A stretch of DNA of 64,000 nt from an uncultured Elusimicrobia bacterium (GCA_903889965.1 CAISZM010000001.1:1389-65388); one strand, 5' to 3'; counted from the first letter of the stretch, positions 1 to 63,463 are shown. Made by a program: numbers and translations. Notes: generated by a model not told the origin, from the sequence alone.

Positions 1-1775
1 CCGGATCTGACAAGCGGCAGAGGTCCGGCAACAGCCGTCATGCCGCTAAGATACTTGTAGCCTATCTTGTCCGGCATCCGCACAGCTTCCCCCTGCAGCT
101 TAGCCGTCCATTCCCCGGTATTGTGGTAGGCCAGATCGAAAGTATGCTCCTTATCGGCGGATACCATGTCCAGCACCAGCACAAGCTCGCGGCCGATCAG
201 GGCGACAGCCCTGCGGTAGGCAACGCCGGGATAAATGGGCCCAGCGTCCGCAAGTACCCCGCTCCATGACGAAGTGGAGATGAAGGCCAGGCTGCTCCCG
301 GTGGCAGGAGCCTGGTCAGCCTCGTCCACCACCAGCGTATTGTGCGCTATCGATGTCCTGCGCCATTGCCCGTGTATCGGCGCGCCATACAGCCCGGTGC
401 CGGGATCAAAGCCTAAAATAGCCGCGCTGCTGTAGAGTATGAAATTCAGCTTGTCGGGATGTCCATGTCCGCCGCCGTGCGGGCCGTATTTAAGACACAG
501 CCAGGTGGCGTTCTTGCCCTTGCCTTTGCGCAGGACGGCGTAACCCGCGCCGGTATAATTGCGGCTGCCCGGTTCGGTTTGCGTGGCGGAGGCCGGCAGG
601 GGGTAAACGCCGGCTATGAGCGCCTGCAATGAATCGCGTTTAGTCCCGCCGAGGATCCCGGCGAAAGCCGTATCGCCGTAATGTGCGAGGCCCAGCTCGT
701 AAAGCGGGGCCTCGCTCAGGAGATTTACCGCCGATGAATCGTTGAAGGCCGGTAAAGTCATGTCCGGCAGGGCGAACTCCAGCGGAGCTTTGAACATCCT
801 GTAATAACTGTTTCCGCCGGCTGTATAACCGTAAATGTCCAGGCCGCAGCGCCGCCCGGCTTCTGCCAGCGGGGCGACGGCGCTCATCGTGTAAAAATGA
901 TAGGTCCACGAGCCTTCATACCACTGCCCGTCGCCGTTGATGCCTTTGGCGATCTGGGCGTAGAAGCCGTGTTCCGAAGCGAGCGCGTCGGACACCAGCG
1001 CCTCATCGCCCAGCAGAAGGCCCGCCAGGGCGACCGCGGAATTCTTCCAGCACTGGATATTGTGTATCTCCATCTTGTGCCTGAGTATCACCTGCGCGGC
1101 CGGCCGGAAAAGGCCTTCCGCAAGACGCTTGCGGTCGGCGCCGCTCAATCTATCCCAGATAAGATCCGCCCCCTGGCACATGGGGATAAGCCATGTGGAC
1201 TCGTCTAAAGTCTGCGCCATCACGCGTCCGGCGCTGGCGGTATCCTTACCTTTAATGTCATGCAGGGGGTATGCGCGGTATCTTTCGGCGTAAGCCAGAA
1301 GTATTTCGCGCGCTTTGTCCGCGTATTTCCGCTGTGAGGTCAGGCGATATATAAAGCCCAGATCCCTGACGGCGGCGGAATAGGAGTTGTGGATGTTCCC
1401 CAGCAGGACGTCGTCATATGGCCAGCCGGTGTAGACCCTGCCGCAAACCGGGCACTTGTGCGTGGCGGAGGAAACCGTGACCAACCGCGCGCCGTCGTCC
1501 GCGCAGGCATAATAATGGCCCCACTGCCCGCCGCGTTCCGGAAGCCCGGTTTTTTTCAACACCCACTCGTCCGCCTTTTTGACCATGGCGGAGTAGCGCG
1601 CTTTAAGGACGGGGTCTTTTTCAATTCTGGCCTTGATGGCGGGTATCTCGGGGTCGGTGATCAACAGGCGCGGATGCGCGGGCAGCGGAGGCAGGGATCC
1701 TGTTCCGGGGGGCTGTGCGGATAATATGCCTGTAAAAAGGCACAACAGCGATAGCGTAATGGGTGATATTTTCAT
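1..1775 (-). CDS. Heparinase II/III-like polysaccharide lyase family protein, secreted; 3' end lies beyond the window start (partial)
   Basis: Absent from the ORF track because it is open to the window edge. My reverse-complement translation from ATG 1775 gives MKISPITLSLLCLFTGILSAQPP (signal peptide). Near the edge it gives ...KYGPHGGGHGHPDKLNFILY...RTSIAHNTLVVDE, which is the heparinase II/III C-terminal signature. This frame has no stop down to position 3. Confidence 0.6.
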   Translation of the reverse strand, partial: MKISPITLSLLCLFTGILSAQPPGTGSLPPLPAHPRLLITDPEIPAIKARIEKDPVLKARYSAMVKKADEWVLKKTGLPERGGQWGHYYACADDGARLVTVSSATHKCPVCGRVYTGWPYDDVLLGNIHNSYSAAVRDLGFIYRLTSQRKYADKAREILLAYAERYRAYPLHDIKGKDTASAGRVMAQTLDESTWLIPMCQGADLIWDRLSGADRKRLAEGLFRPAAQVILRHKMEIHNIQCWKNSAVALAGLLLGDEALVSDALASEHGFYAQIAKGINGDGQWYEGSWTYHFYTMSAVAPLAEAGRRCGLDIYGYTAGGNSYYRMFKAPLEFALPDMTLPAFNDSSAVNLLSEAPLYELGLAHYGDTAFAGILGGTKRDSLQALIAGVYPLPASATQTEPGSRNYTGAGYAVLRKGKGKNATWLCLKYGPHGGGHGHPDKLNFILYSSAAILGFDPGTGLYGAPIHGQWRRTSIAHNTLVVDEADQAPATGSSLAFISTSSWSGVLADAGPIYPGVAYRRAVALIGRELVLVLDMVSADKEHTFDLAYHNTGEWTAKLQGEAVRMPDKIGYKYLSGMTAVAGPLPLVRS

Positions 1776-1855
1776 TGGTGACCGGCTTTGCCGGGGTCTT
1801 TTTTGTTTTGTATAGTTAAATATGTCGTCTTCCATCGGGAGTCCCGCTGAAAATT

Positions 1856-4159
1856 ATGCCATATAAAGATGCTCCGCATAACGAGCCGGTAAAAGGCCCC
1901 GGCTTCGCCGCTTTTATAGACTTACACGACTCCACCTACGCCTGGGACCAGAACGCGGATACGGCGGCCGAAATGATACGGGAACTCTACAAGTCGGTAG
2001 AGGCGGCCGTGGACAAGTACAATGGGCATGTCGGGAATTTTACTGGCGACGGTTTCCTGGTGCTTTTCACCAGCGTGGAAAGCAGTATTTTGTGCCTGAG
2101 CCGGATCATACAGGATTGGGAAAAGACCCGGGTGAAGTATATTGAAAAATTTTCCGTCGCCGGGGTGTCCGTCCCGGACGGCCATTTCCTGGCTCTGCGC
2201 ACCGGTATCTCTTTCGGTAATTTCGGTCCCCTGGCTATAAAAAACACGACCCACTATTCGGGTTCCGGCATAAATAAGGCCCAGCGCTGCGAGGCCGCGT
2301 CAAAAGAGTACTTCAGGCGGGAGACAATAGGGCAGCTTGTCTCCCCGAATTACGTTTTTGTGGACAGCAGCGCCGAAAACCTCATTAACGTAAGGAGCGA
2401 TTTTTCTATTTCGGAACAATTGCCGGCGCAATTTAAGGGATATTCCCAGACTCACGTGTCGGTGGACAAGCCCGAGTTCGAATCCAGGAAACAGTTCATT
2501 TATGCCGTCTGGCCCAGGGAAAAGGCCGGCTCAGCCGGGAAATCGGGGACCGAATTGGAGAAACTGGCCCTGGCCCAGACGAAGGCGGATATAGGCGACA
2601 GGCTTGTGCTGGCGGCGCAAACGATAAGGTCCGCCAGGATGTACCACGAATTGTCCGAGTCGGCCATGGGGAAGAACCGCAGAAAGCTGCTTGAAGAAGC
2701 GGTCAAAGCCTACCAGGATGCCTTGAAGTCTTACACCCCCGATTCGTCCCCGGGCGATTATGCCAATGCGCAGAATAATCTCGGCAGCGCGCTGTTCGAC
2801 CAGGCTTCCACTCTGGCGGGAGGGGAAAAGAGACAAAAACTCGAGGAAGCGGTAGCGGCGCACAATGAAGCGCTGAAAATATACACCATTACCTCGGCTC
2901 CCGACGACTATGCCCGCGCACAAAGCGGCCTTGGAAGAGTTTTCAGTTTCCAGGCCGACATCCTGGCCGGCGAGGATAAGAAGAAAAAACTCAGGGATAC
3001 GCTGACCGCTTACAAAGAATCTTTGCGGGTCTGGACACTCGCTTTAAACCCGGCCGGTTATGCCTCGGGCCAGCGCAACCTCGGTTCGGCGCTGGCGGAC
3101 CAGGCCATGCTTATGGCCGGCGAAGAGAGGAAACAAACGCTCAATGAGGCCGTTCTGGCGTACAGGGAATCCCTGCGGGTAAAGACGTTCGAAGCAAACC
3201 CGGAAGACTATGCCTTCACGCAGCAGCGGCTCGGTTCTACCTTGAGGGATCAGGCCACGCTTCTTTCCGGGGAAGAGAGGCGGAAAAAACTTGAGGAGGC
3301 GGCGACGGCGCTCAAAGAAGCCCTGCGGGCCTACACTTACGATTCCTCGCCCAACGAATATGCCGGGTCACAAAACAATCTGGGAAACACCCTCAGGGAC
3401 CAGTCACTGACCCTTGCCGGTGAAGAAAAAAAGCAAAAACTTAAAGAGGCCGTCACGGCGTATAAAGAAGCCCTCCGGGTATATACTTTTGACGCATCCC
3501 CGTCCTATTATGCCATGACGCAGAACAATCTCGGCAACTCAATAAGGGGCGAGGCCGTTTTTTTTCCGCGTGAAGAGCGTGTGCGTATATTCGACGAAGC
3601 GATAGCGGCCTACGCCAAGGCGCTGCGGGTCTACACTTTCGAGTCCACCCCCGCCTACTACGCCGGGGTGCAGAACAATCTTGGCGAGGCGATGTGGGAA
3701 AGGGCCGGTTGTTCCGCCGGGGAAACGAAACGGGAAAAATTAAACGAAGCTATTGCCGCCTACAACGAAGCGCTGCGCGGTTACGATCTTTCCTCGTTCC
3801 CGGGCGCCTATGCGCTGGTCAAATATAATATCGGCAATGCCTCCAGGGATATGGCGGGAACCCTGGCCGGCTTGGAAAAACAAAAAAAGCTGGAAGACGC
3901 GGTAGCGGCGTACACGGAAACCCTGCGGGTTTTTACCTTTGAGTCGGCGCCCTGCGACTATGCCGACGCGCAGATAGGCCTTTCGGAAGCATTGGCCGGC
4001 CAGGCGGAGCTCCTGGCGGGGCATGAAAAGAAAGAGAGGCTTATAAAAGCTTTGTCGGCCTGCGCCGAAGCCATGAGGGTCTATACCGAAACCGATTATC
4101 CTGACCGCTGCATTGAGCTGAAAAAGAGAGCGGCGGAATTGAATTCATATCTGCGGTGA
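1856..4159 (+). CDS. Class III nucleotidyl-cyclase-like domain fused to a long TPR-like repeat array (767 aa, soluble)
   Basis: The N-terminal ~165 aa carry cyclase-homology motifs in canonical order: FAAFIDLHDST, GNFTGDGFLVLF, LRTGISFGNFGP, SGSGINKAQRCE. Residues ~277-767 are ten ~49-aa repeats. There is no TM helix or signal peptide. Confidence 0.7.
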   Translation: MPYKDAPHNEPVKGPGFAAFIDLHDSTYAWDQNADTAAEMIRELYKSVEAAVDKYNGHVGNFTGDGFLVLFTSVESSILCLSRIIQDWEKTRVKYIEKFSVAGVSVPDGHFLALRTGISFGNFGPLAIKNTTHYSGSGINKAQRCEAASKEYFRRETIGQLVSPNYVFVDSSAENLINVRSDFSISEQLPAQFKGYSQTHVSVDKPEFESRKQFIYAVWPREKAGSAGKSGTELEKLALAQTKADIGDRLVLAAQTIRSARMYHELSESAMGKNRRKLLEEAVKAYQDALKSYTPDSSPGDYANAQNNLGSALFDQASTLAGGEKRQKLEEAVAAHNEALKIYTITSAPDDYARAQSGLGRVFSFQADILAGEDKKKKLRDTLTAYKESLRVWTLALNPAGYASGQRNLGSALADQAMLMAGEERKQTLNEAVLAYRESLRVKTFEANPEDYAFTQQRLGSTLRDQATLLSGEERRKKLEEAATALKEALRAYTYDSSPNEYAGSQNNLGNTLRDQSLTLAGEEKKQKLKEAVTAYKEALRVYTFDASPSYYAMTQNNLGNSIRGEAVFFPREERVRIFDEAIAAYAKALRVYTFESTPAYYAGVQNNLGEAMWERAGCSAGETKREKLNEAIAAYNEALRGYDLSSFPGAYALVKYNIGNASRDMAGTLAGLEKQKKLEDAVAAYTETLRVFTFESAPCDYADAQIGLSEALAGQAELLAGHEKKERLIKALSACAEAMRVYTETDYPDRCIELKKRAAELNSYLR
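2684..4156 (+). repeat. Ten tandem ~150-bp coding repeats (TPR-like units) inside the cyclase-TPR CDS
   Basis: The protein repeats with a period of ~49-50 aa. Consensus is about KLEEAVxAYxEALRVYTxExxPxxYAxxQNNLGxALxDQAxLLAGEEKxx, for example KLEEAATALKEALRAYTYDSSPNEYAGSQNNLGNTLRDQSLTLAGEEKKQ. Confidence 0.8.
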
Positions 4160-4266
4160 TCCCAGGATCTCCCCAGGTCCGCAGGCGGACCAGCGCCGCT
4201 CGATCGTCGCCGGCCCACGCGCAGGCCGCTGAAATCAAATATACACGTTCTGTCCGGCAGGGGGGC

Positions 4267-5595
4267 ATGAAACCGGCCCGCAAAACATGGTTCAGCTTGC
4301 GGGATTTATTTTGTAAACTGACGATAATGTCCCCTCTCAAAACACGCAACAAGCTGCTGAAGCCTTCCCAGGCCATTCACGCGCTGCACCCGGAGGTGCC
4401 GAAGAACGAGGTCATACACGCTTTGCGCGAACGCGTCAAGGAGTTGACGGCGCTGCATTCAACGGTCTGCGTGCTGCAGGACGACAGTCTTTCCACCAGG
4501 GAGGTTCTTGACCGCGTGGTCAAGCTCGTCCCGCCGGCATGGCAGTACCCGGAGATCACCTCGGGACGTATAATTGTCGGGGACTGCGAAGGCCGGAATC
4601 GCGGTTTCAGGCGTACACGCTGGCTGCAGGCCTGCGATTTCCGCGTAAGCCCCAAGCTGACCGGACGCATAGAGGTTTATTACCGCAAAAAAATGCCCAA
4701 AGAGGCTGAAGGCCCGTTTCTCGCCGAAGAGCGCAACCTTATTAATTCCCTGGCCGACATGCTCAGGGTCTATTTTGAGCGCAAGCTGGCCTCAAAGGCC
4801 CTGATGGACGCCCACAAAGACCTGGAGCGCCGTGTGACGGAACGTACGGCGGAGCTGCAAAAGCTCAATTTCGCGCTCAAGAACGAGGTAAGGGAGCGCG
4901 AACTGCGGCAAAATGAAATACTTTCGTACCAGGAAAAACTTAAAGGCCTCTCTTCCGAGCTTATATTGACCGAGGAACGCGAACGCAGGGAGATCGCCAC
5001 GGATCTGCACGATATCATAGGCCAGACCCTGGCCATGGCTAAAATGAAGGCGGGGGTTTTGCGCGGCTACTGCTCAGCCGCCGAGGCCTCCGGCGAACTG
5101 AAGAACCTTTCGGGCTTTATAGACGAGGCGATACTTGCCACCCGCAACCTCACCTTCCAGCTCGCTTCTCCCATACTTTATGAACTGGGGCTTGAGAGCG
5201 CCCTGGAGCGGTTGGCCGAGGATACCCGCAAACGCCACGGCCTGGCGGTAAGTTTCCGCGCCGAGGGCGGACGCCTGCCATTGCCGACCGAGACCAGCGT
5301 GCTTATATTCAAGTCCGCGCGGGAGCTGCTTATCAACGCAGTGAAACATTCCGGCGCTTCAGAGGTAAAGCTGCGCGTGCGCCGCGCCGGCGGCAGGATA
5401 ACCGTAACGGTGAGGGATAACGGCCGCGGGTTTAACCCGGTGGCCGCCTCGGTTTATGACGGCGCCAAGGGCGGGTTCGGGCTTTTCTCCATCAGGGAGA
5501 AAGTCTCGCGTCTGGGAGGGGCTTTCCGGCTGAGCTCCCAACCGGGTTCGGGCACGCTCGCTGTAATAACAGCGCCTCTCGGCAAGGACAAATAA
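4267..5595 (+). CDS. Cytoplasmic sensor histidine kinase, HisKA_3 (NarX/DegS-like) type
   Basis: H-box EERERREIATDLHDIIGQTLA. ATPase motifs VTVRDNGRGFNP and GGFGLFSIREKVSRLGGAFRLSSQPGSGT. It has a coiled-coil linker and a ~170-aa N-terminal domain of unrecognised type with no TM helix. The ORF is open from GTG 4156, overlapping the upstream stop. I chose ATG 4267, preceded by AGGGGG, but the start is uncertain. Confidence 0.8.
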   Translation: MKPARKTWFSLRDLFCKLTIMSPLKTRNKLLKPSQAIHALHPEVPKNEVIHALRERVKELTALHSTVCVLQDDSLSTREVLDRVVKLVPPAWQYPEITSGRIIVGDCEGRNRGFRRTRWLQACDFRVSPKLTGRIEVYYRKKMPKEAEGPFLAEERNLINSLADMLRVYFERKLASKALMDAHKDLERRVTERTAELQKLNFALKNEVRERELRQNEILSYQEKLKGLSSELILTEERERREIATDLHDIIGQTLAMAKMKAGVLRGYCSAAEASGELKNLSGFIDEAILATRNLTFQLASPILYELGLESALERLAEDTRKRHGLAVSFRAEGGRLPLPTETSVLIFKSARELLINAVKHSGASEVKLRVRRAGGRITVTVRDNGRGFNPVAASVYDGAKGGFGLFSIREKVSRLGGAFRLSSQPGSGTLAVITAPLGKDK

Positions 5596-5597
5596 CT

Positions 5598-6245
5598 ATG
5601 GTTAAAAAGATATTGATCTGTGACGACCACAAGATATTCCGCGAAGGTCTGCGGGCATTGCTGGAAAAACAGACCGACATAAAGGTGGTGGGCGAAGCAA
5701 GGGACGGAATAGAGGCGGTGCGTCTCGCCGGGGAGCTTGCCCCGGATATCGTCATAATGGATATTTCAATGCCGGGCCTGAACGGTATAGAAGCCTCGCG
5801 TAAAATCGCCAAGGCGCATAAGGCGGCGCGCGTTGTGGCGCTTTCAATGCATAATGACCGGAAGTATGTTACCGAGATCTTTAAAGCGGGCGCACGCGCC
5901 TACCTGCTTAAGGATTCGGCCTTTGAGGAACTTCTGGACGCGATAAAAGCCGTGAACTGCGGCCGTTTTTTCCTGAGCGCCGGTATTACCAGCCTGGTGC
6001 TGAGCGATTACATCAAGGGCTCTGCCGGAGACCCCCGCAGCCCGTTCATCATGCTTTCTTCACGCGAAAGGGAAGTGCTGCAGCTCCTGGCTGAAGGCCT
6101 GCGGACCAAGGAGATATCGCACAAACTGGATTTGAGCATTAAGACCGTCGAGACCCACCGCAAAAAGATCATGGAAAAAATAGGGATACAGAGCATTGCC
6201 GGCCTCACCCGTTACGCGGTGAAAGAGGGGCTGGTAAGTTTGTAA
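5598..6245 (+). CDS. NarL/FixJ-family response regulator (REC + LuxR-type HTH)
   Basis: KILICDDHKIFREGLRALL and DIVIMDISMPGLNGIEA (receiver). LSSREREVLQLLAEGLRTKEISHKLDLSIKTVETHRKKIMEKIG (LuxR HTH). It starts 2 nt after the kinase stop. Confidence 0.9.
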   Translation: MVKKILICDDHKIFREGLRALLEKQTDIKVVGEARDGIEAVRLAGELAPDIVIMDISMPGLNGIEASRKIAKAHKAARVVALSMHNDRKYVTEIFKAGARAYLLKDSAFEELLDAIKAVNCGRFFLSAGITSLVLSDYIKGSAGDPRSPFIMLSSREREVLQLLAEGLRTKEISHKLDLSIKTVETHRKKIMEKIGIQSIAGLTRYAVKEGLVSL

Positions 6246-6406: not shown

Positions 6407-7618
6407 ATGTTTGATACCGGAAATACCGGGTTTATGCTCGTGTCGACAAGCCTCGTCATGCTCATGACCCCCGGACTTGCCTTTTTTTACGGCGGGCTTG
6501 TGGGCCGCAAGAACGTGCTGGCCATAATGATACAGAGTTTCGTGTCGATGGGCGTAACCACGATCCTGTGGTACGCTTTCGGCTACTCGCTGTGTTTCAG
6601 CGGCGGGCAGGGCGCGGTGATCGGCAATCTGGACATGGCCTTTATGCACGGCATAACCCCCATGACCGCCTTCACCGGGTCCAGCAGCATACCTTTGTTG
6701 GTGTTCTTCGCTTATCAGATGATGTTCGCCCAGATAACGCCGGCGCTCATCACCGGGGCTTTCACCAACCGCATCAACTTTAAGGCCTACCTGATATTCC
6801 TGGTCCTGTGGCTGATATTTGTGTACTTCCCTCTGGCGCACATGGTGTGGGGCGGAGGCCTGATGTCCAAGTGGGGCGTGCTCGATTTCGCCGGAGGCAT
6901 AGTGGTCCATGCTACCGCGGGTTTTGCCGCTCTCGCATCCGTGTTCTTCGTGGGCAAACGCAAGGTGGCGGACTCCGGCGCGCATAGCATCCCCCTGGTG
7001 GCGCTGGGAACGGGTTTGCTCTGGTTCGGGTGGTACGGTTTTAACGCCGGCAGCGAACTGAAGGTGGACCCTGTAACGGCTCTGGCCTTTGTAAACACCG
7101 ATGTCGCCGCTTCCTTCGCGGCTATAACCTGGCTGTTCATCGCCTGGTCGCTGGAAAAGAAGCCCAAGTTCGTGGGCCTGCTGACGGGTTCCATAGCGGG
7201 CCTGGCTACCATAACCCCGGGCGCCGGCTATGTTACCACTAAAGCCGCAGTGTGCATCGGCATTCTTGCCAGCGTAGTCTGTTACATGGCCGTGAACATG
7301 AAGAATAAACTGGGCTGGGACGACGCTCTTGATGTGTGGGGCGTGCATGGCGTGGGCGGCGTGCTGGGCGTGATAATGCTTGGAGTGTTCGGCACTACGG
7401 CTGTAAACGCGGCTGGAGCCAACGGCCTTTGGCACGGCGATGCCGTGTTCTTCTTCAAGCAGGTGATAGCGGTAACAGCTACGGCCATTTACGCCTTCCT
7501 GTTCTCCTACGGCATGCTGTTCGTTATAAACCTGTTCACTCCGGTAAGGACAGAGGAAAAAGAGGAAGAGGCCGGTTTGGACGAGGCGCAACACGGCGAG
7601 ACGGCCTACCTGCATTAA
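6407..7618 (+). CDS. amtB: Ammonium transporter (Amt family)
   Basis: 403 aa, polytopic. Amt signatures present: LDFAGGIVVHATAGFAALA, LLWFGWYGFNAGS, WDDALDVWGVHGVGGVLG. Confidence 0.95.
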   Translation: MFDTGNTGFMLVSTSLVMLMTPGLAFFYGGLVGRKNVLAIMIQSFVSMGVTTILWYAFGYSLCFSGGQGAVIGNLDMAFMHGITPMTAFTGSSSIPLLVFFAYQMMFAQITPALITGAFTNRINFKAYLIFLVLWLIFVYFPLAHMVWGGGLMSKWGVLDFAGGIVVHATAGFAALASVFFVGKRKVADSGAHSIPLVALGTGLLWFGWYGFNAGSELKVDPVTALAFVNTDVAASFAAITWLFIAWSLEKKPKFVGLLTGSIAGLATITPGAGYVTTKAAVCIGILASVVCYMAVNMKNKLGWDDALDVWGVHGVGGVLGVIMLGVFGTTAVNAAGANGLWHGDAVFFFKQVIAVTATAIYAFLFSYGMLFVINLFTPVRTEEKEEEAGLDEAQHGETAYLH

Positions 7619-7687: not shown

Positions 7688-8425
7688 ATGAGAATACCTT
7701 ATCTTACCGCCGCGATACTCCTGCTAGCCTCGCTGACCGCGAAAGCCACTCCTTCCACGCAGATCTGGATACCGTCGACCGATATACAGAAGTACAAGAG
7801 CCTGCATCTCAATATCGATAATTATGTGGCGGCTCAAAAAGAGCCCGGCGGATTATGGAAAGCCCCTGTTTTTGTGGCCGGCCCCACAATCGGCGTGCTT
7901 CCTTATGAAAAGATCCAGGCAGAGGCAGGTTTTGACTTGATGAGGAGCGGTTTGCCTTCCGATAACTATCCTTTCTATTTTCACGCCAAGGTCGGTGCTC
8001 CGGAAGGCGCCGTTTTTCCCGGCTCTCCGGCGCTGGCTATCGGCGGTTATAATTTCGGCCTGAAACGCGAGGTTACCGATCAGAACATCATTTACGGCCT
8101 GGCCGCAAAGAACCTTCCCGCGATAGGCAGGCTTTCAGCCGGATACTATTCGGGAAATAAAAAATTGCTTCTGGATGAAAATGGGAAGAAGGCCGATACG
8201 GGCGTACTTCTCTCCTGGGACAGGGTATTAAGCGAGGTTTCGGACAAGCTTTGGGCGGCGGTGGATTATCAGGGCGGGGAATCGCCGCTTGGCGCGTTCA
8301 ACTTCGGGGTTTCATGGACCTTCGCGCCGGATACGAGCGTAATACTCGGTTACGACATGTACAATAACGTAAAAGTGGCCGGGCGCGATACCTTTACCGT
8401 ACAGCTGGATATCAATCTCTGGTAA
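7688..8425 (+). CDS. Putative outer-membrane beta-barrel protein (245 aa)
   Basis: ATG 7688 follows GGAGGGGGA. Signal peptide MRIPYLTAAILLLASLTAKA. Alternating hydrophobic pattern with a C-terminal aromatic end ...FTVQLDINLW. No family recognised. Confidence 0.5.
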   Translation: MRIPYLTAAILLLASLTAKATPSTQIWIPSTDIQKYKSLHLNIDNYVAAQKEPGGLWKAPVFVAGPTIGVLPYEKIQAEAGFDLMRSGLPSDNYPFYFHAKVGAPEGAVFPGSPALAIGGYNFGLKREVTDQNIIYGLAAKNLPAIGRLSAGYYSGNKKLLLDENGKKADTGVLLSWDRVLSEVSDKLWAAVDYQGGESPLGAFNFGVSWTFAPDTSVILGYDMYNNVKVAGRDTFTVQLDINLW

Positions 8426-10663: not shown

Positions 10664-12154
10664 ATGAACGATCGTTTCGCGGTCCGCGCCCTGCTCGCCG
10701 CCGGCTCCGTCATGGTGGTGCTGGCGGCGGCGCCTTACCGCATGTTCGACCTCGACCGCTTCTTCGCGCCCAAAGAACTGGTGCTGCACGCGGCCACGCT
10801 CGCCCTGGCGCTCCTGAGCCTGCGCGGCGTGAAGGCGCTCAAATTTAACCGTATCGATATGCTGCTCGTCCTGTACCTGGCACTCAGCTTCGCCAGCGCG
10901 CTGTTCGCGGCCGACCACTGGCTATCCGCGCGCGCTCTGGCGATCACGCTCTCCAGCGCGGGATTGTTCTGGGCCTCGCGCTCCGCCGCGGATGCCGGAG
11001 CTCGCCGCACGATAGTGGCGGCCGCGGCTGGGGCGGCGGTGATCGGCGCCGCCATGTCGCTGGCGCAGGCTTACGGCATATCAAGCGGCTTCTTCAGCCT
11101 CAATCGCATCCCGGGGGGGACCCTGGGCAACCGTAATTTCATGGCGCACCTTGCCGTCCTCGGAGTTCCGGCTCTCATCCTCGCCGTTCTCACCGCGCGC
11201 CGCTCCTGGGCCGCGGCCGCCGGCGCCGTGGGGCTGGCGATCATCACGGGCGCACTGGTGCTTTCACGCTCGCGCGCGGCCTGCCTGGGCCTGGCCGCCG
11301 GGGCGGCTGTGCTGGCTTTCGGGCTCTGGCGGGGGCGCAGCCTCTGGAACGATACGAAAACGGCGTTCCGGTTGAGGTCACTGGTGCTCGCCGCCGCGGC
11401 GGGGGTGCTGGCCGCGCTGCTCCTGCCGAACACGCTGGAGTGGAAGAGCGAATCCCCGTACCTCGACACGGTTACAGGCCTGGTGAACTACCACGGGGGG
11501 AGCGGACACGGGCGCCTCGTCCAGTACTCGAGAACGCTGCACATAGCGGCCGTGCATCCGCTGCTTGGCGTGGGGCCGGGCAATTGGGCGGTCGCTTACC
11601 CGAAGTACGTCGTGCTTTACGATCCCTCTATAGACTACGCTACCGGGACGACCATAAACCCGTGGCCGAGCAGCGACTGGATGGCGATAGTCTCCGAGCG
11701 CGGTGTGCCGGCGCTGGCCGCGATACTGCTTGTATTCATCGGTTTGCTCGCCGGCGCATGGCGGCGCGCCGCTCAGGCCGCGAGCTCAGGCGAATATCTG
11801 GAAGGGCTTACGCTGGCGGCTACCCTGGCGGCGACAGCGGTGGTCGGGTGCTTCGACGCCGTGCAGCAGCTCCCGGCGCCCTCGTTCATAGCCTGGGCGC
11901 TTTTCGGCGGGCTCGCGGCGTCCTCTCCGGCTCTGCGGTCGGTGGCTCTCTCGCAGCGAGGCCGGCGGCGGCTGGCGGCGTCGGTGGCGCTAATCGGGGC
12001 GGCGGCGGTGCTGCGCAGTTCGGGGCAGGTGGCCGCGATGGCTGTCTTCAGCAAGGCGCGTTCGGCAGCGCAATGCACTAAAGCGGCGCGGCTGGACCCC
12101 GGCAATGCCAGGATCCGTTCGCGCTGCGCGGCCCTGCGGGAGAGGGGATACTAG
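10664..12154 (+). CDS. O-antigen ligase/polymerase-like (Wzy_C family) membrane protein
   Basis: 496 aa, polytopic. Characteristic loop region LVLSRSRAACLGLAAGAAV and HPLLGVGPGNWAVAY. Confidence 0.65.
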   Translation: MNDRFAVRALLAAGSVMVVLAAAPYRMFDLDRFFAPKELVLHAATLALALLSLRGVKALKFNRIDMLLVLYLALSFASALFAADHWLSARALAITLSSAGLFWASRSAADAGARRTIVAAAAGAAVIGAAMSLAQAYGISSGFFSLNRIPGGTLGNRNFMAHLAVLGVPALILAVLTARRSWAAAAGAVGLAIITGALVLSRSRAACLGLAAGAAVLAFGLWRGRSLWNDTKTAFRLRSLVLAAAAGVLAALLLPNTLEWKSESPYLDTVTGLVNYHGGSGHGRLVQYSRTLHIAAVHPLLGVGPGNWAVAYPKYVVLYDPSIDYATGTTINPWPSSDWMAIVSERGVPALAAILLVFIGLLAGAWRRAAQAASSGEYLEGLTLAATLAATAVVGCFDAVQQLPAPSFIAWALFGGLAASSPALRSVALSQRGRRRLAASVALIGAAAVLRSSGQVAAMAVFSKARSAAQCTKAARLDPGNARIRSRCAALRERGY

Positions 12155-12271
12155 GCCGTGCCGCTGTCCGGGATCACCCGGCTGTAAAATGCTTAAATGA
12201 GTTAGGGGAAAAGGTTAACGATCTGTCCCATCTCCAGTGTAAGGCAACCGGTATAACACGGGAGGCGGCAT

Positions 12272-12685
12272 ATGAAAACTGTAATTGCGGTAATAGGCCT
12301 GGCATTGATGCCTTTTGGTATATTCGGGTGCGGTCCTGAAAAAGCGGTGGACAATATCGATCTACCCTTCATAAACGACCCGGAGGTGATAGGCGACTGG
12401 GTCAGTGTGGACTTCGTAGTCGAACCCTCGCTTTTTAAACCCCGCAAAAAAAACTCCGCGGATGATTTCTACCTGGAGGGGCTTACCTTCCTGCCGGCTG
12501 GCAAGATGCCGCAAAATTATTGGACCTGGACCAAGGGCGTGGTGATGCATAGCGGGGATAAGACCGCGAGCGCGTACACTATTAAAGAAATTGCCGGCCA
12601 CACATACATGTTCTTTGAGTGGAAGAGCATCGATTACATTATCCACCACATGAAACCTAAATACTACGTGCTGGTGAAGAAATAG
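12272..12685 (+). CDS. Hypothetical lipoprotein (137 aa)
   Basis: Lipobox-like N-terminus MKTVIAVIGLALMPFGIFGCG. RBS GGGAGG upstream. Lower G+C than the flanks. Confidence 0.5.
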   Translation: MKTVIAVIGLALMPFGIFGCGPEKAVDNIDLPFINDPEVIGDWVSVDFVVEPSLFKPRKKNSADDFYLEGLTFLPAGKMPQNYWTWTKGVVMHSGDKTASAYTIKEIAGHTYMFFEWKSIDYIIHHMKPKYYVLVKK

Positions 12686-12890
12686 CTGCCCGGTGCGGCA
12701 GGCAGCCGCGAGAGCGCGGAACACCAGGGGCAGCCGCCTGTAACTAGTTTGAAGCGCAGGTTTTTAACTTTTGGCTATTGATCCTTAGAATGGTCAACTA
12801 GTTGAGGGCGGAGTTTGAAAAAAAGAGTCATATGTGATGCGCAAGCGGGACGGTGGATAAAGTTTTATTTTAATATGACAGGAGGTTTAT

Positions 12891-13469
12891 ATGGACGTGA
12901 AAGAGGCTATCGAGAAGAGGCGGTCTTACAGGGCTTTTATGCCGGTGGAAGTTACGGACGGGATGATAAAGGAATTGGCTGCGGCTGCGCAACTGACGGC
13001 TTCGTGCTTTAACAACCAGCCGTGGAAATTCGTCTTTGTACGGTCGAAGGAGGCTCTCGCTAAGGTCCATGATTGCCTGAGCAAAAACAACGACTGGGTA
13101 AAGGACGCCTCGGTAATAATAGCCGCTTTTGCCCGGAAAGATTACGACTGCGTGATAAAAGAGAGGGAGTATTATCTTTTCGACCTGGGGATGGCGGTTT
13201 CGGCCATGCAGCTGCGCGCCACCGAGCTCGGGCTGGTGGCGCATCCCATAGCGGGTTTCGATAATGAAAAAGTGAGGCTGGCGCTGGGGATACCGGAAGG
13301 GAATATGGTTATCACCTTGGTGAACCTGGGTAAAAAAAGCGATGATATGAGATCCCTTACGCCGCAGCAGGCGGGGATGGAAGGCGGGCGGCCGCCGCGG
13401 CTGGCGCTCGAGAATATTTACAGCATGGATTCATACGACGAAAAACTGGCTGTAAAACCCGCGCATTGA
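12891..13469 (+). CDS. Nitroreductase family protein
   Basis: AIEKRRSYRAF near the N-terminus, CFNNQPWKFVFV, and GLVAHPIAGFD. 192 aa, typical of the family. Confidence 0.8.
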   Translation: MDVKEAIEKRRSYRAFMPVEVTDGMIKELAAAAQLTASCFNNQPWKFVFVRSKEALAKVHDCLSKNNDWVKDASVIIAAFARKDYDCVIKEREYYLFDLGMAVSAMQLRATELGLVAHPIAGFDNEKVRLALGIPEGNMVITLVNLGKKSDDMRSLTPQQAGMEGGRPPRLALENIYSMDSYDEKLAVKPAH

Positions 13470-13559
13470 AGTAATGAAACGGCGCGGGTACCTTTTGGCG
13501 CAACTTTGCCGGTGCTTTTTTGTTTGGTATAGTTAGAGCAAATAGCGGGGAGGTATATT

Positions 13560-13937
13560 ATGTCCACTGAGGGGAAAAAACGGCATGGCTGCTTGACGGC
13601 CTGGCTGGTTCTTATGATCGTTATGAATTCCCTGGCGGCTCTTGTTTATCTGCTGGGAAACGCTATTCTCCGCAGATCGTTCCCCAACGCCCCCGGGTGG
13701 GTGTTTTCCGTTCTTCTTATGGTGAGCGTGTTTAACCTGGTGTGCGCTATCGCCCTGTTTAAATGGAGGAAGTGGGGCTTCTGGGGTTTTTTAGCATCCA
13801 GCGTGATAGGGGTTGTTATCAATAGCAAGATGGGCTTTGGTTATACCGAGACCATTTCCGGCTTTACCGGCGTATTTATTCTGTACGGGATACTGCAAAT
13901 CGGCAAGGACAAAAAAGGGTGGCCCCAGTTGGAATAG
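13560..13937 (+). CDS. Hypothetical small membrane protein (125 aa, about 4 TM)
   Basis: Hydrophobic helices (LTAWLVLMIVMNSLAALVYLL, VFSVLLMVSVFNLVCAIALF and others). RBS GGGAGG upstream. Confidence 0.45.
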   Translation: MSTEGKKRHGCLTAWLVLMIVMNSLAALVYLLGNAILRRSFPNAPGWVFSVLLMVSVFNLVCAIALFKWRKWGFWGFLASSVIGVVINSKMGFGYTETISGFTGVFILYGILQIGKDKKGWPQLE

Positions 13938-13986
13938 ATCGAACATGTGTGAAAAATTGCGGGATCCGGGCAAGAGGTTACAGACG

Positions 13987-14535
13987 ATGAGCGAACATTT
14001 TCCCACTTTTATTAAAATCTCAAAAGGCAGCAGGAGCCTTTTTACATGGTTCCTTCACGCGGGTGAGGGTCCGGGCGCCCTGTCCTATTTTGCCATAGCG
14101 CTGCGCAGCACGCTCTGGACCACGGTCTTATGGGTTCCGGGTCTCGTTAGTTTATTCGGCTTCCTCGGTAACACCGGTTCTGAGGCATTGCTGTTCCTTC
14201 CTGTTATCTTTTTTCCATTAGGGTTCCTTATCGCCTATATCGCCTCCGAAAATTCAACTGGCATGCGGGATGCGCTGCTCAGGAGTCTCAGTTCGGTCGC
14301 GATCTTCGTTGTTATAAATGTCCTGCTATTCTTTTCGTTAGTTATACTCCCGTCTGCATATGCGTTTGTCATGATTCTGCATGTTCTTTCTTATATGCCC
14401 CCGGATAATCAGGAGGCGTATATCGGGCTGGTTTGGTTTGGCAGTTTGTTAGTGGCCTTGGGTTTCCTCTTTTTCGCGGGTTTAGGCGGAGCGGCTCGCT
14501 TAATGTATGACCGCCGCCGGGCAAACCGTAAGTAA
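13987..14535 (+). CDS. Hypothetical membrane protein (182 aa)
   Basis: The ORF is open from 13813 but overlaps the previous gene. ATG 13987 (MSEHFPTF...) is the first non-overlapping start. It has several TM helices and a basic C-terminus. Confidence 0.4.
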   Translation: MSEHFPTFIKISKGSRSLFTWFLHAGEGPGALSYFAIALRSTLWTTVLWVPGLVSLFGFLGNTGSEALLFLPVIFFPLGFLIAYIASENSTGMRDALLRSLSSVAIFVVINVLLFFSLVILPSAYAFVMILHVLSYMPPDNQEAYIGLVWFGSLLVALGFLFFAGLGGAARLMYDRRRANRK

Positions 14536-32675: not shown

Positions 32676-33893
32676 TCAGGTATTCGGTAATGTAAACCAG
32701 AAGGTGGAGCCGCGGCCTTCGGCGCTTTCGACGCCCGCGCTGCCGCCGTGCAGTTCTACAAGGTGCTTGACTATGGAAAGGCCGAGGCCGGTGCCGCCCA
32801 TTTCCCTGGAGCGGGCCTTGTCGACGCGGTAGAAACGCTCGAAGATCCTTGGCAGGTGCTCCGCCGGTATGCCGGCGCCCGTATCTTCCACTATAACTTT
32901 TACGCCGCCGCCTTCGGCCATGGCCGAGATGTTTATCTTCCCGCCTTCCCGGTTATATTTAGCGGCATTGTCCAGCAGGTTTATAAGTACCTGCGAAAGC
33001 TTGTCGCGGTCGGCGTACACCTTAAGCCCGGCAGGGACCTTATCCGATACGGAAACCCTCTTTTTGGCCAGCACTGACTCCAGGCTTCCTGCCGTTTCGT
33101 CCACGAGTTCCTTCAAGTCCAGGGCGGCCTTCTCTACGGCGGCGCGGCCCGACTCGGCGTACGAGATCTTCAGCAGGTCGTTAACTAAATTATCCAGGCG
33201 CATGGCCTGCTCGCATATGCTGCGGGCGAAGCCAGGGCCGTGTTCCCTGTCCTCCAGGGCGCCGTTAAGCAGCGTCTCGGCGCACCCTCTTATCGCCGTA
33301 AGCGGGGTTTTAAGTTCATGCGAGACATTGGCCACAAAATCACGCCGCATGGCCTCAAGCTTGCGCGGCCCGGTAATATCTCTCGCCACAAGCACGCAGC
33401 CGCGCACGGCGCCCTCCTCTACGATAGGCGAAGCGCTTACGCTTAAAACCGTGCCGGGGGAGGCCGGCGGTTCTATTTCCAGGAAAACGGGAGCGGCGCT
33501 CAAAAGGGCCTTTATGGCCGCGGAGGATAATTCGGGGCCGGCTGGCATGCCGGACAGGCGCATGCCCTCGGCGTTAAATCCGCGCGCGCCCATCAGTTCG
33601 CGTCCCCGCGGGTTGATGCGGGTTATTACACCCGAGCCGTCCGTGACCACTATTGCTTCGGACATGTCGCGGAAAGCCGCCTCAAGCTCAAGCCGCCGCA
33701 CTTCCGCTTCGCGCATTCTCGCGCTTATCTCTCCCGCCATGTAGTTGAGGGTCTCAGAAAGCTTTTTCAGCTCGCCGAAGGAACCGCCCGGGATGCGGTA
33801 GCCGAAATCCCCGGCGGCGAAGCGCTTTGAACCTTGTATTATCTCCCCGAACTGCCTTCCGACCAGCAATTGGAGGGCGGACAAAATATTCAT
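32676..33893 (-). CDS. phoR: PhoR-like sensor histidine kinase without TM region (partial HAMP-PAS-HisKA-HATPase)
   Basis: [18 protein letters not shown] (H-box) and [48 protein letters not shown]. The start overlaps the phoB-like stop by 4 nt. There is no hydrophobic N-terminus. Confidence 0.8.
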
Positions 33894-57800: not shown

Positions 57801-58459
57801 TTGAAGATCTGTGGCACCTTGCCGCCAATTCGGAGCTGTTTTGCTGTGATGCGGTTGCCGAGCTGGAAATGATGCGGATGATCGACCATGCTAAATCCGG
57901 CGGTGATACCCTGGGGGGTGTGGTGGAGGTGCAGGTGTCCGGCGTTCCGCCAGGTCTGGGCAGTTATGTCCAGTGGGACCGCAAGCTGGATGCGCGCCTG
58001 GCAATGGCGCTGATGAGCATACAGGCCATCAAGGGGGTTGAGGTGGGCATTGGTTTCGAGGTTGCCCGTTTCCCCGGTTCACAGGTACACGACGAGATTT
58101 TTCGCGATGCCGGTCGTCTTGATCAGGGGGCCGCCAGCGCCTATTTCAGGTATACCAACAGGGCCGGTGGTATTGAGGGTGGCATGTCAAATGGTGAAAT
58201 AATCGTGCTGAGGGCTGCCATGAAGCCGATCCCGACCCTCTATACCCCGTTGCGATCGGTTGATATCCAAACGCACGAACCATTCGAGGCTGTCGTGGAG
58301 CGTTCCGATACCTGTGCGGTGTCTGCAGCTCTTGTGGTGGCCGAGGCGGTGGTGGCCATTGAGATTGCCAATGCTTTTCTGGAAAAATTCGGAGGAGACT
58401 CGCTACGCGAGATACGACGCAATTATGATGGGTTCCGTGAGCAGATTCGCAATGTATGA
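57797..58459 (+). pseudogene. aroC: Chorismate synthase, C-terminal ~220 aa only (5'-truncated at the junction)
   Basis: [52 protein letters not shown] and the C-terminal ...[21 protein letters not shown]. The N-terminal ~170 aa of a normal AroC are absent. Confidence 0.85.
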
Positions 58460-58970
58460 CCGTCCCGTTATCCTGACCGGTTTTATGGGCAGCGGCAAGA
58501 GCAGTGTCGGGCGGATTCTGGCAAGGTCCCTGGGATGTCCGTTTATTGATCTGGATGCGGTGATTGTTGCCGATGCGGGGAAATCGATTAACGAAATATT
58601 TAGTGATGAGGGGGAGAGTGCCTTTCGGGTCAGGGAAAGCACCTGTCTTGAGCGGATCCTGTCGGACGGCCTGAAAGTAATTGCATCCGGCGGGGGTGTG
58701 GTGATCGCCGAATCGAATCGTCGCTTGATGCGCAAGAGGGGATTCGTGGTCAACCTGACGGCATCGTTATCCACGATCTTGGCCCGCCTGGAAGGGGCTG
58801 CCGACCGGCCGCTGTATGCCGGTCTGGATGCCGCAAGTCGTGTCAGGGTGTTGCTGGAAGAACGAAAACAATTTTATGCCGATGCTGATATTAGAATTGA
58901 CACGGACAAAATTTCCGTGGAAGATGTGTCGGCAAAGATTTTGAGGATTTTAAAGGGGTTGCCCGCGTGA
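58452..58970 (+). CDS. aroK: Shikimate kinase
   Basis: [24 protein letters not shown] (P-loop). 172 aa. It overlaps the aroC stop by 8 nt. Confidence 0.9.
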
Positions 58971-60046
58971 GTTCGCTGACTGTCAACCTGGGCGAAAACA
59001 CTTATGATATTCGGATCGATTGCGGTTCGCTGTCATCGCTCGGTAGCCAGTGCGCCGAACGAGGGCTGGCGGGGCGCGTTGCGTTGGTTACCAACCCGGC
59101 GGTCGCTGCTCTCTACGCCGATCAGGTCAGACAAGCACTGGCTGAAGCCGGCAACGATGTTACCCTGATCGAGATTCCAGATGGCGAAGAATACAAAAAT
59201 TCAACAACCCTCAATCGGGTCTATGATGAGCTGATCGAAGCGGGACTTGACCGCAATTCATTCATCGTTGCCCTGGGGGGCGGGGTGGTGGGCGATTTGG
59301 CCGGATTCGCGGCGGCAACCTATCTGCGCGGCATCCCTTTCGTACAGGTGCCGACGACTCTGCTGGCTCAGGTCGACAGCAGCGTAGGGGGCAAGACCGC
59401 CATTGACCACCCGCGTGGAAAAAATCTTATTGGCGCCTTCTTCCAGCCGAGGCTGGTGCTGATCGACACGGATACATTGAAGACACTTCCGTTACGTGAA
59501 TTCCGTGCCGGCTTGGCCGAAGTTGCTAAATACGGGATTGCCCTCGACAATGGTTTTTTTGAATTTTTGGAGCAGAACAACGTCAGCATCCAGAAGATGG
59601 AGCAGGAAAGCCTGGTGCGGGTTATCCTGACTTGCTGCCAACTGAAGGCCCGGATCGTAGAGATGGATGAGAAGGAATCCGGTCTGCGCGCGATCCTCAA
59701 TTACGGACATACCTTGGGGCATGCCATTGAGACCCTGGCGGGTTACCGCCAAATGGTGCATGGTGAGGCTGTGGCGCTCGGAATAGTGCTTGCCGCCCGG
59801 ATCAGCAGAACACTCGGGTACTGTAACGATCACGATGTTAACCGTATCACAACACTCTTGTCAGGTTTCGGACTTGAGCTTTCTCCGCCGCGGGTCGAGG
59901 CCGACCGTTTGCGCGACGCCCTGTTGAAGGACAAGAAAAGCCGCAGTGGCAGTATAAGTTTCATATGCAATCGTGGTATCGGTGACTATGTCGTGGAAAA
60001 ACTATCAACTGAGCAACTGCTCATCCTAAGCGGATTGGAGGTCTGA
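58967..60046 (+). CDS. aroB: 3-dehydroquinate synthase
   Basis: GGGVVGDLAGFAAATYLRGIPFVQVPTTLLAQVDSSVGGKTAIDHP and NYGHTLGHAIE. Confidence 0.95.
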   Translation: MSSLTVNLGENTYDIRIDCGSLSSLGSQCAERGLAGRVALVTNPAVAALYADQVRQALAEAGNDVTLIEIPDGEEYKNSTTLNRVYDELIEAGLDRNSFIVALGGGVVGDLAGFAAATYLRGIPFVQVPTTLLAQVDSSVGGKTAIDHPRGKNLIGAFFQPRLVLIDTDTLKTLPLREFRAGLAEVAKYGIALDNGFFEFLEQNNVSIQKMEQESLVRVILTCCQLKARIVEMDEKESGLRAILNYGHTLGHAIETLAGYRQMVHGEAVALGIVLAARISRTLGYCNDHDVNRITTLLSGFGLELSPPRVEADRLRDALLKDKKSRSGSISFICNRGIGDYVVEKLSTEQLLILSGLEV

Positions 60047-60049
60047 ATC

Positions 60050-60973
60050 ATGCTGCAAGACAGTGCATCGTTCTGGTCTGATATCAAAATGTATGAGGAG
60101 CGGTTGGCACAGGATCCCGATTCATACCTCTTTGCGCGGTTGGCAGAGATCTATCTGAAGGTTGACCTGATAGATGATGCCCTTCATATCGCACGTCGGG
60201 GGGTTGAAAAGTACCCGGCCTATATCACCGGTTTACGTGTCCTTGCCATGGCCTGTTACGCCAAAGGGCTGCATGACGAGTGCCGCCGGGCCTTGGAAAC
60301 GGTTGTCGCGGCTATCCCGGAAGACGCGCAGGTTCAGAGGCTGTTGGGAAAATTGCTGGTTGCGGACGGGAATAGCGAGGCGGCCAAGAAGGTACTTCTC
60401 ACAATTCTGGATTTCAACCCTGACGATCTGGAGTGCCGGGAGGAAATCCTGGCGCTTGAACAGGTTTCCATCCTGCCTGTGATGGAGTCCTCCGAAATTT
60501 CACTTCTCGAAGCTGGTGCGGAACTCGCTGACTCGGTTGTTCAGGAGTTTGTGGATGATGACGAGATCATCGATCTTCAAGAATCTGATATAGTTGAGGA
60601 GTTTGATCTGGAAAAAATGGCTCCTCCCGCAACAACAGCCGAACGTCTTGATCCGCTCTCGACTGCTACCTTGGCGGAGTTGTACGTTCAGCAGGGGTTT
60701 ACCGACAAGGCGTTGAATATTTATCGGTCCGTGTATGCTGTGGATCCGACGAACAGTGATGTTCAAACCCGGATTGCCGAACTTGAAGCCAGAGAAGCTG
60801 CGGCAGCGGCTTTTCCTGTGATGTCGGATAGTGCCGATACCATTTCCGGTACCGTTTCTCAAGAGTCTTCAGTGTTTCCGCAGGGTATTCACGTGCAGGG
60901 TGCAACTGACGATGTTGTATCCACGCTGGAAGGGTGGCTTGAAAACATCAGGAGGATCAAGGCATGTCGCTAA
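60050..60973 (+). CDS. TPR-domain protein with acidic linker (307 aa)
   Basis: TPR-like helices at both ends (YLFARLAEIYLKVDLIDDALHIARRGVEKYP..., LAELYVQQGFTDKALNIYRSVYAVDPTN). Confidence 0.55.
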   Translation: MLQDSASFWSDIKMYEERLAQDPDSYLFARLAEIYLKVDLIDDALHIARRGVEKYPAYITGLRVLAMACYAKGLHDECRRALETVVAAIPEDAQVQRLLGKLLVADGNSEAAKKVLLTILDFNPDDLECREEILALEQVSILPVMESSEISLLEAGAELADSVVQEFVDDDEIIDLQESDIVEEFDLEKMAPPATTAERLDPLSTATLAELYVQQGFTDKALNIYRSVYAVDPTNSDVQTRIAELEAREAAAAAFPVMSDSADTISGTVSQESSVFPQGIHVQGATDDVVSTLEGWLENIRRIKACR

Positions 60974-61326
60974 GGGAAACACTGGCTGGAATCATTGAAA
61001 ATATTGAAGGGGGATGTGCCATTAGCATCATGGCTAGCGATGGCATCCCCATTGACGAAGTTGTTCTGAACCAGGCCGGATTTGATCTGCAGCTCCTGAC
61101 GGTTGAATATGCTACACTCCTCAAGGATATAAGGCGGGTTGTCGAGGTTCTCAAGGTTGGTGAACTGGAGGAAATCTCCGTAACGACCGGTCAGTTGTAT
61201 GTCGTTATCCGCATACTGAGTGATGAGCTGTTTGTGGTTCTGATCATGACCCGGGATGGCAATTTTGGCAAGGGGCGCTATCTGCTGCGCATCAATTCAG
61301 ACGGATTGGCCAACGTGCTGCGATAA
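60964..61326 (+). CDS. Roadblock/LC7 (MglB-like) domain protein
   Basis: 120 aa with a pattern typical of Roadblock/LC7: ...[17 protein letters not shown]...[42 protein letters not shown]. Confidence 0.5.
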
Positions 61327-61328
61327 CC

Positions 61329-63458: not shown

Positions 63459-63463
63459 TAATC

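Follow-up and report, generated by a model that had tools for sequence, protein, structure and literature searches.

What does a nucleotidyl cyclase with a long repeat tail do beside a two-component system? The question is raised by a 64,000-nucleotide stretch of DNA from an uncultured Elusimicrobia bacterium (GCA_903889965.1 CAISZM010000001.1:1389-65388; hereafter, the window), in which a gene for a 767-amino-acid (aa) protein, with a cyclase-like head and a tetratricopeptide repeat (TPR) tail, precedes genes for a histidine kinase and a response regulator. An earlier note on this DNA saw in the protein either a sensor-effector layout recalling STAND/Avs-like proteins or an ordinary signaling cyclase feeding the adjacent pair. 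The three same-strand open reading frames (ORFs) are confirmed, at 1856-4159(+), 4156-5595(+), and 5598-6245(+). We favor another reading, to which we assign a probability of roughly 0.6: the 767-aa protein works in the cytoplasm as a class III nucleotidyl cyclase in its own right, regulated by its TPRs, as a member of a rare, very divergent subfamily and independently of the gene cassette downstream.

On the evidence of sequence profiles and a structure model, residues 14 to 220 are securely homologous to class III cyclase-homology domains (CHDs), because the matches of a family profile and those of a structure search all point to class III cyclases. Pfam PF00211 (Guanylate_cyc), the hidden Markov model that the earlier note had proposed as a check, did not match the 767-aa protein at E ≤ 1 and matched 1 of 22 family members at E ≤ 0.01. 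The single NCBIfam match to the CHD was the LipJ model (41 residues, E = 0.012). When the first 266 residues were compared with sequences in the PDB, all the weak matches were class III cyclases. We then used a family profile built from 11 homologs, all found among 5.8 billion clustered proteins. Against PDB sequences, it matched Ma1120 (1e-6), CyaB (2.4e-5, profile positions 16-148), photoactivated cyclases (OaPAC, approximately 8e-4, positions 26-165), and trypanosome GRESAG4 (1e-3); the genuine matches were all class III cyclases. We rejected the nominal top match, the designed repeat protein dTor_9x31L, as an artifact, in which one short segment is matched weakly eight times, with E >25 every time. 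An AlphaFold model of residues 1 to 221 (mean predicted local distance difference test score, pLDDT, 84.4; predicted template modeling score, pTM, 0.83) was compared with the PDB in Foldseek, and the top 50 matches were again all class III cyclases (E 7e-11 to 2e-8, probability 1.0), including CyaC (7e-11), Rv1900c, Cya2, CyaB, and Ma1120. Because the profile and structure evidence is clear, we do not count the missing PF00211 match as a refutation; the proposed class III head on a TPR tail stands by profile and by structure and fails by PF00211.

The limits of the domain differ from those first described, which were a cyclase region of about 165 aa and a linker of about 110 aa. The CHD comprises approximately residues 14 to 220, and the supposed linker is mostly its C-terminal third, holding YVFVDSSAENLI ... 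AQFKGY ... IYAVWP, the conserved C-terminal strands of the CHD fold. The connector between CHD and repeats consists of approximately 10 disordered residues and one long helix (residues 231-269), and in the model the CHD runs through that helix directly into the repeats.

The repeat array is real: TPR_12 matches it with E = 3e-16 (59.8 bits vs a cutoff of 30.1). The motif L.EA..AY.EAL[RK] occurs nine times with a spacing of exactly 50 residues (279-728), followed by a shorter C-terminal cap. A model of the full-length protein (pLDDT 90.7, pTM 0.70) contains ten hairpins, each of two helices of approximately 19 residues, in agreement with the ten TPR-like repeats described earlier; the period of about 49 aa given for them is corrected to 50. 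These units depart from the standard 34-residue TPR and represent a long-helix, TPR-like variant. No long tandem repeat was found in the DNA, and the repeat units are therefore old and diverged. The nearest solved folds to the solenoid, as ranked by Foldseek, are TPR proteins of the LGN/Pins type (TM 0.73-0.79), whose superhelices bind extended peptides. The TPR-S model scored 2.3e-4 for the 767-aa protein, below its cutoff, and matched 7 of 22 family members, the best at 1.3e-8.

Does the CHD retain the residues that catalysis would require? The motifs FIDLHDST, GNFTGDGF, and INKAQR align to the catalytic columns of class III cyclases. In an alignment with canonical Lys/Asp cyclases drawn from the representative search described below, the columns holding D22, D65, R115, and R144 are invariant and the one holding N140 is nearly so, which bears out the claim that both metal-binding Asp residues and the Asn/Arg pair are retained. 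Judged by position, D22 and D65 are the metal Asp residues, R115 the phosphate residue, and N140 and R144 the transition-state pair; K194 is also present. Among 19 family members, D65 is conserved in all, N61 and R144 in 18, D22 and R115 in 17, N140 in 14, and K194 in 12, while position 133 is His in 8 and Asp in 7. The family has, in addition, invariant residues not shared with other cyclases (F62, W88, R92, W219, and P220).

The residues expected to select the base are unusual. N61 occupies the Lys column and H133 the Asp column of the canonical alignment, and HMMER pairs GHVGNFTGDGF with GHVVKSQGDGF of Ma1120, again placing N61 opposite the Lys. Asn at the purine-specifying position and a non-Asp residue at the second position, both proposed by eye, are thus found, and the combination matches neither canonical pair (Lys/Asp for ATP, Glu/Cys-Ser for GTP). 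The sequence alone does not reveal the substrate. An alignment with PDB sequences shows Asn at the Lys position in the CHD of Rv1900c (LipJ) as well, where EVNTAGDGF aligns residue for residue with VGNFTGDGF. Rv1900c is reportedly an adenylyl cyclase that also shows slight guanylyl cyclase activity, and its second specificity position is presumably Asp. Because a reported adenylyl cyclase has the same Asn, this analogy suggests that Asn at the Lys position alone does not imply an exotic specificity. The idea of a non-canonical nucleotide specificity is weakened by Rv1900c; the sequence allows it but does not require it. In clade E of PycC, the specificity residues are F100, R142, and Q144, relative to D102 and D146 (PMC11224242); the equivalent positions in the 767-aa protein are F20, N61, and T63. 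In two more distant cyclase domains from the representative search, P0040 and P0063, the motif reads ENFTGDG[FH], with Asn once more in place of the Lys; in P0040, the domain is joined to repeats that likewise show the ...YA.TQNNLG... pattern and have a period of nearly 50 aa. The combination of an Asn-type cyclase with long TPRs thus reaches beyond the core family.

The GNFTGDGF cyclase-TPR family is rare, small, scattered, and highly divergent. When 1.84 billion representatives were searched exhaustively with a profile, 22 clusters matched at E ≤ 1e-30 and 45 at E ≤ 1e-10, beyond which the matches grade into ordinary class III cyclases. In nearly all strong matches (400-780 aa), TPR repeats follow the cyclase domain, and close relatives group by size at approximately 465, 620, and 770 aa, with about 4, 7, and 10 repeats, respectively. 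The 767-aa protein itself is absent from the protein collection, in which the closest entry is 78% identical; NCBI labels the closest family member a hypothetical protein. Across 185,579 species genomes, we detected only 11 convincing loci, all in metagenome-assembled genomes (MAGs): four Elusimicrobia (the best 82% identical in the CHD), Methylomirabilia, two Planctomycetota, two Betaproteobacteria, one Sandaracinaceae, and one unclassified. A scan of JGI metagenomes gave 21 family loci. Overall, the family is found in Elusimicrobia, Planctomycetota, Methylomirabilia, Betaproteobacteria, and Myxococcota.

Within these genomes, the cyclase-TPR gene is an accessory gene in unrelated contexts. 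In the nearest genome, an Elusimicrobia groundwater MAG (L010:1839-11210), a 773-aa ortholog lies between MoaC and a MOSC-domain gene, on the same strand, within a cluster for molybdate transport and the molybdenum cofactor (LysR-ModABC-MoeA-MoaA-MoaC-[cyclase-TPR]-MOSC-MoaB). At other family loci, the gene adjoins NifS/NifU, a PLD-type enzyme, or unrelated genes. We clustered all ORFs within 4 kb of approximately 39 family loci and found no conserved partner gene; the clusters that did emerge consisted of shadow ORFs on the antisense strand and of sets drawn from contigs that were redundant or closely related.

If the cyclase-TPR gene has no constant partner, to what does the neighboring two-component system belong? 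The assignment of the two genes to a HisKA_3 kinase and a NarL-type regulator agrees with Pfam (HisKA_3 4.6e-10 and HATPase_c 9e-14 for the kinase, Response_reg and GerE for the regulator), and the regulator does start 2 nucleotides (nt) past the kinase stop. The best NCBIfam matches of the pair (MctS/MctR, UhpB, and NarQ) all lie far below cutoff, and the N-terminal sensor region of the kinase, about 150 aa long (RERVKELTALHSTVCVLQDD...), has no Pfam match. The kinase ORF had been described as open across the cyclase stop; this holds mechanically, with the frame open from 4156, but the N-termini of orthologs (MSPxxKxRNKLLKPSQ) place the start at Met 4327, leaving a gap of 167 nt to the cyclase stop. 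More than 50 kinase orthologs (72-92% identity) occur in Elusimicrobia; orthologs of the cyclase-TPR gene are very few by comparison. Whole-kinase homologs at approximately 45% identity and >90% query cover occur in Zixibacteria, Eisenbacteria, Edwardsbacteria, and Thermoanaerobaculaceae.

The kinase and regulator genes recur with an ammonium transporter gene, amt, as a cassette in five loci (L023-L027) from three other Elusimicrobia genomes. In these loci, the regulator orthologs directly follow the kinase (84-92% identical) and Amt is syntenic (84-89% identical); orthologs of a 245-aa protein (70-75% identical) lie 3' of amt in L023, L024, and L026, which represent two of the three other genomes. 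The genes 5' of the cassette differ in the other genomes (a GNAT acetyltransferase, KdpDE, or a periplasmic binding protein), and a cyclase is present in none of the five cassette loci. Using tblastn (E ≤ 1e-5, or 1e-3 where the kinase was compared with the first 22 loci), we found no relative of the kinase, regulator, or Amt near family genes at any of the approximately 39 loci, and in the loci fetched around homologs no kinase or regulator lies beside the cyclase-TPR gene. Because the cassette recurs without a cyclase and the linkage is not conserved, we assign the two-component pair to amt; its adjacency to the cyclase-TPR gene looks accidental. The proposal that the cyclase feeds the adjacent pair does not survive this comparison, which the earlier note had itself suggested as a check. 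The cyclase-TPR gene and the cassette are most likely functionally independent, and the cassette is a candidate nitrogen- or ammonium-responsive unit. Just 5' of the kinase start, the motif TTTTGTAAACTGACG is invariant in the window, L023, L025, and L026 (just 5' of position 7001), while the remaining upstream sequence is unrelated. Its conservation makes it a candidate for the cassette's own promoter: it could be a -10-like element (TAAACT) so placed that transcription begins at or beside the ATG and yields a leaderless mRNA, or else a regulator binding site.

Relatives fused to kinases bear on both catalysis and coupling. Three family members (P0027, P0032, and L034:4398-7682; 930-1094 aa) are cyclase-TPR-HisKA-HATPase-receiver(-like) fusions. 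The L034 protein (1094 aa) has a CHD 54% identical to that of the window protein and carries D22C, R115S, and N140I; the CHDs of P0027 and P0032 are also degenerate. Every close unfused relative with sequence across both sites keeps FIDL[HY]DST and GSGINKAQR, a pattern that fits selection for catalysis in the unfused form. That catalytic residues are lost in the fusions alone argues for a working enzyme in the unfused proteins. The window protein ends (ELKKRAAELNSYLR) at the exact point where the fusions continue into the kinase dimerization helix. The pseudo-cyclase-TPR module in the fusions appears to be the N-terminal input of a hybrid histidine kinase; the module can thus drive a histidine kinase, which keeps a low-probability coupling in the window alive. 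The fused kinases are of the HisKA type vs HisKA_3 for the window neighbor, with only weak HATPase similarity common to both. A tblastn search of the window with the L034 kinase tail found generic HATPase similarity only (E = 4e-4 for the neighboring kinase) and no remnant of a fused kinase past the cyclase-TPR stop. Elsewhere in the window, a second histidine-kinase-like region (~32685-33338, minus strand) is 27% identical over 236 aa to the HisKA/HATPase part of L034. Beside short unfused cyclase-TPR genes at two other loci, we found a 91-aa ORF (L001:5929-6201, minus strand) with 52% identity to the extreme C-terminal tail of the fusions and a 23-residue segment (L009:1759-1827) with 57% identity to that tail. 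Both may be remnants of a broken-up fusion gene.

Taken as an independent enzyme, the protein would work as follows. The CHD would form the usual head-to-tail homodimer with two active sites at the interface, D22 and D65 holding two metal ions, R115 and K194 the phosphates, and N140 and R144 serving the transition state. The likeliest product would be cyclic AMP (cAMP), with side activities possible, because Rv1900c, with Asn at the Lys position, is said to be an adenylyl cyclase. The helix at 231-269 is predicted to tie the CHD to the superhelix of ten 50-residue hairpins, whose likeliest role is to bind a protein or peptide ligand or to self-associate. Either event could set the geometry of the cyclase dimer through the helix, and hence its activity.

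Several observations weigh against an independent working cyclase. PF00211 does not recognize the domain, Asn/His replaces Lys/Asp, K194 is conserved in only 12 of 19 members, and N140 is Ser in some. The three fused relatives are clearly non-catalytic by their residues, so the fold can serve another role in the family. Because the stretch from the cyclase stop to the kinase start showed no terminator-like site, transcription may read through from one gene into the other. Nothing below E = 2 was found when the window was searched for a cyclic nucleotide receptor in one low-sensitivity phmmer run, with E. coli CRP as the query. Divergence, non-canonical specificity residues, imperfect conservation of K194 and N140, degenerate versions in the same subclade, and family invariants unrelated to catalysis would all suit a pseudo-enzyme, whose cyclase-like domain binds nucleotide or acts as a dimerization scaffold in a TPR adaptor. 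We consider this rather unlikely, given that D22, D65, R115, N140, and R144 are kept in the window protein and in the close unfused relatives spanning both sites, and that these residues are lost only upon kinase fusion, as expected if they are important in the unfused state. The fusions also lend themselves to a different proposal, that the cyclase-TPR protein supplies the input to the HisKA_3 kinase and NarL-type regulator beside it, through a cyclic nucleotide or by docking, as a split version of the fused proteins. The genes lie on the same strand across a gap with no terminator-like site, three relatives are actual cyclase-TPR-kinase fusions, and the window protein ends where these go on into the kinase. 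Against this, the linkage is unique to the window among the approximately 39 family loci, the cassette occurs without the cyclase and behind other genes in three other genomes, and the fused and neighboring kinases differ in type. The conserved motif 5' of the kinase start also favors an independent promoter, and the fused CHDs are degenerate, whereas the window CHD is intact. We therefore regard such an input role as improbable.

Could the protein instead be a sensor-effector in conflict or defense? Its TPR array would detect a foreign protein and switch on a nucleotide signal, perhaps a cyclic pyrimidine, with the receptor encoded elsewhere. Consistent with such a role are the scattered occurrence, spanning five phyla and no more than about 11 of 185,579 species genomes, the varied settings of the gene, one of them in the middle of a molybdenum-cofactor operon, the change in repeat number (about 4, 7, or 10) among close relatives, and the TPR-S matches. 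Partial PADLOC PycC matches in 8 of 19 members (best 2.6e-6) and the correspondence of the PycC clade E specificity positions to F20, N61, and T63 point the same way. However, the protein lacks an NTPase module, an adjacent effector that binds cyclic nucleotides, and a conserved partner; its neighbors are housekeeping or envelope genes and not defense genes. The PycC matches span only the first 57 of approximately 205 domain residues, and canonical adenylyl cyclases outscore 7r65, which we take to be a PycC structure (E = 0.33 with the family profile). The Asn at the Lys position is found in the adenylyl cyclase Rv1900c, too. We judge a defense role very unlikely, and the same holds for its most elaborate form, a self-contained, NTPase-less analog of STAND sensors with Pycsar-like chemistry, in which an Asn/His (or Asn/Asp) pocket would produce a signal other than cAMP. 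The reading of the protein as a stand-alone cyclase remains our preferred one.

The features of the locus are listed in Table 1. The cyclase-TPR gene is separated by a divergent intergenic region of 80 nt from a minus-strand gene, whose product contains Alginate_lyase and Heparinase II/III C-terminal domains. G+C content falls to 51-55% at window positions 12001-14000 and 58001-64000, vs approximately 59-62% elsewhere, and GC skew there is high (0.10-0.18); these regions may be acquired or differently expressed.

Table 1. Features of the cyclase-TPR locus and the adjoining cassette, in window coordinates
Feature	Coordinates	Strand	Basis and remarks
Heparinase II/III-like / alginate-lyase-like gene	3-1775	-	591 aa, signal peptide; divergent from cyclase-TPR gene; runs off window start
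Promoter-like site TTGCCG-17-TATAGT	1788-1816	+	Consensus scan only; 40 nt 5' of cyclase-TPR start codon
Cyclase-TPR gene	1856-4159	+	ORF call; 767 aa; soluble, no signal peptide or transmembrane segment seen
Class III CHD	1895-2515	+	Residues 14-220; profile, Foldseek, alignment, family conservation
Long connecting helix	2546-2662	+	Residues 231-269, between CHD and repeats; AlphaFold secondary structure
TPR-like alpha-solenoid	2669-4156	+	Residues 272-767; ten hairpins and C-terminal capping helix; motif spacing, TPR_12, AlphaFold, Foldseek
Conserved motif TTTTGTAAACTGACG	4309-4323	+	15 nt; ends 3 nt before kinase ATG
Soluble HisKA_3 histidine kinase	4327-5595	+	422 aa from conserved start; Pfam, ortholog N-termini
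NarL/LuxR-type response regulator	5598-6245	+	215 aa; Response_reg 1.8e-29, GerE 2.1e-19
Ammonium transporter Amt	6407-7618	+	Ammonium_transp 6.6e-112; third cassette gene
245-aa signal-peptide protein	7688-8425	+	No Pfam match; fourth cassette gene

The locus matters in several ways. It brings to light a small class III cyclase subfamily that standard domain models miss, none of the 22 members considered having a usable PF00211 match. The architecture of a cyclase with terminal TPRs was already known, and the window family is an unmodeled addition to it. The locus is also a case of misleading gene adjacency, since the two-component system next to the cyclase-TPR gene in fact belongs to a conserved kinase-regulator-ammonium-transporter cassette. 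The intact CHDs and the degenerate, kinase-fused ones form a natural series on the reuse of the cyclase dimer as a regulatory module. Interest would rise sharply if the product were to differ from cAMP or a foreign protein were to gate the enzyme; no present finding requires either.

Among known systems, Pycsar is similar in having a divergent class III cyclase, PycC, with specificity residues other than Lys/Asp. PADLOC matched two PycC models to the window protein, PDLC02367 (E = 1e-5, residues 19-74 only) and PDLC00734 (0.012, residues 20-146). These matches are partial and weak, and the specificity residues of the window protein are unlike those of every described PycC clade. No PycTM or PycTIR effector binding cyclic nucleotides lies beside the window gene, nor was a conserved neighbor found at the approximately 39 family loci. 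We therefore rejected membership in Pycsar for want of an effector gene. With STAND/Avs proteins, the window protein shares a C-terminal repeat sensor, the TPR array. Pfam, NCBIfam, and PADLOC detected no P-loop NTPase (NACHT, NB-ARC, or AAA) in it, as the earlier note had stated, and membership in STAND was rejected on this ground. Of the sensor-effector layout proposed there, the scattered distribution and variable repeat number are in keeping with the idea; the lack of a defense-gene neighborhood and of a full PADLOC match is not.

The closest likenesses are to class III cyclases. CyaC of Spirulina platensis, the top structural match, and Ma1120 of Mycobacterium avium, the best profile match (target-normalized TM up to 0.85), are minimal soluble class III adenylyl cyclases, in which the metal Asp pair, the Arg, and the Asn/Arg pair align with the window CHD; they differ in having the canonical Lys/Asp pair and no TPR. 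Rv1900c of Mycobacterium tuberculosis (PDB 1ybt, 1ybu) shares the class III fold (Foldseek E = 1.7e-10), the Asn for Lys in the xxNxxGDGF strand, and the soluble homodimeric type. It differs in having an N-terminal alpha/beta-hydrolase domain and no TPR, and it is only about 16% identical. We also take Rv1900c to have His at the position of the catalytic Asn, whereas the window protein keeps N140.

In domain order, the nearest counterparts are cyclases that themselves carry TPRs. Rv0386 reportedly has non-canonical substrate-specifying residues, Gln/Asn. Proteins of the Rv0386 / LA_4008 type are arranged as cyclase-AAA ATPase-TPR, with or without a LuxR helix-turn-helix (HTH) domain (PMC3789758), and class III adenylyl cyclases with C-terminal TPRs are known, for example A7NMN0 of Roseiflexus castenholzii (PMC9552081). 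The 767-aa protein differs from the Rv0386 type in having no AAA/NB-ARC ATPase or LuxR HTH, the GerE HTH of the window lying in the separate regulator gene. It differs from both types in a CHD that PF00211 does not detect, in repeats with a 50-aa period, and in the family signature GNFTGDGF, WE..R, and AVWP. It shares with both the essential plan of an N-terminal cyclase followed by C-terminal TPRs in one soluble polypeptide.

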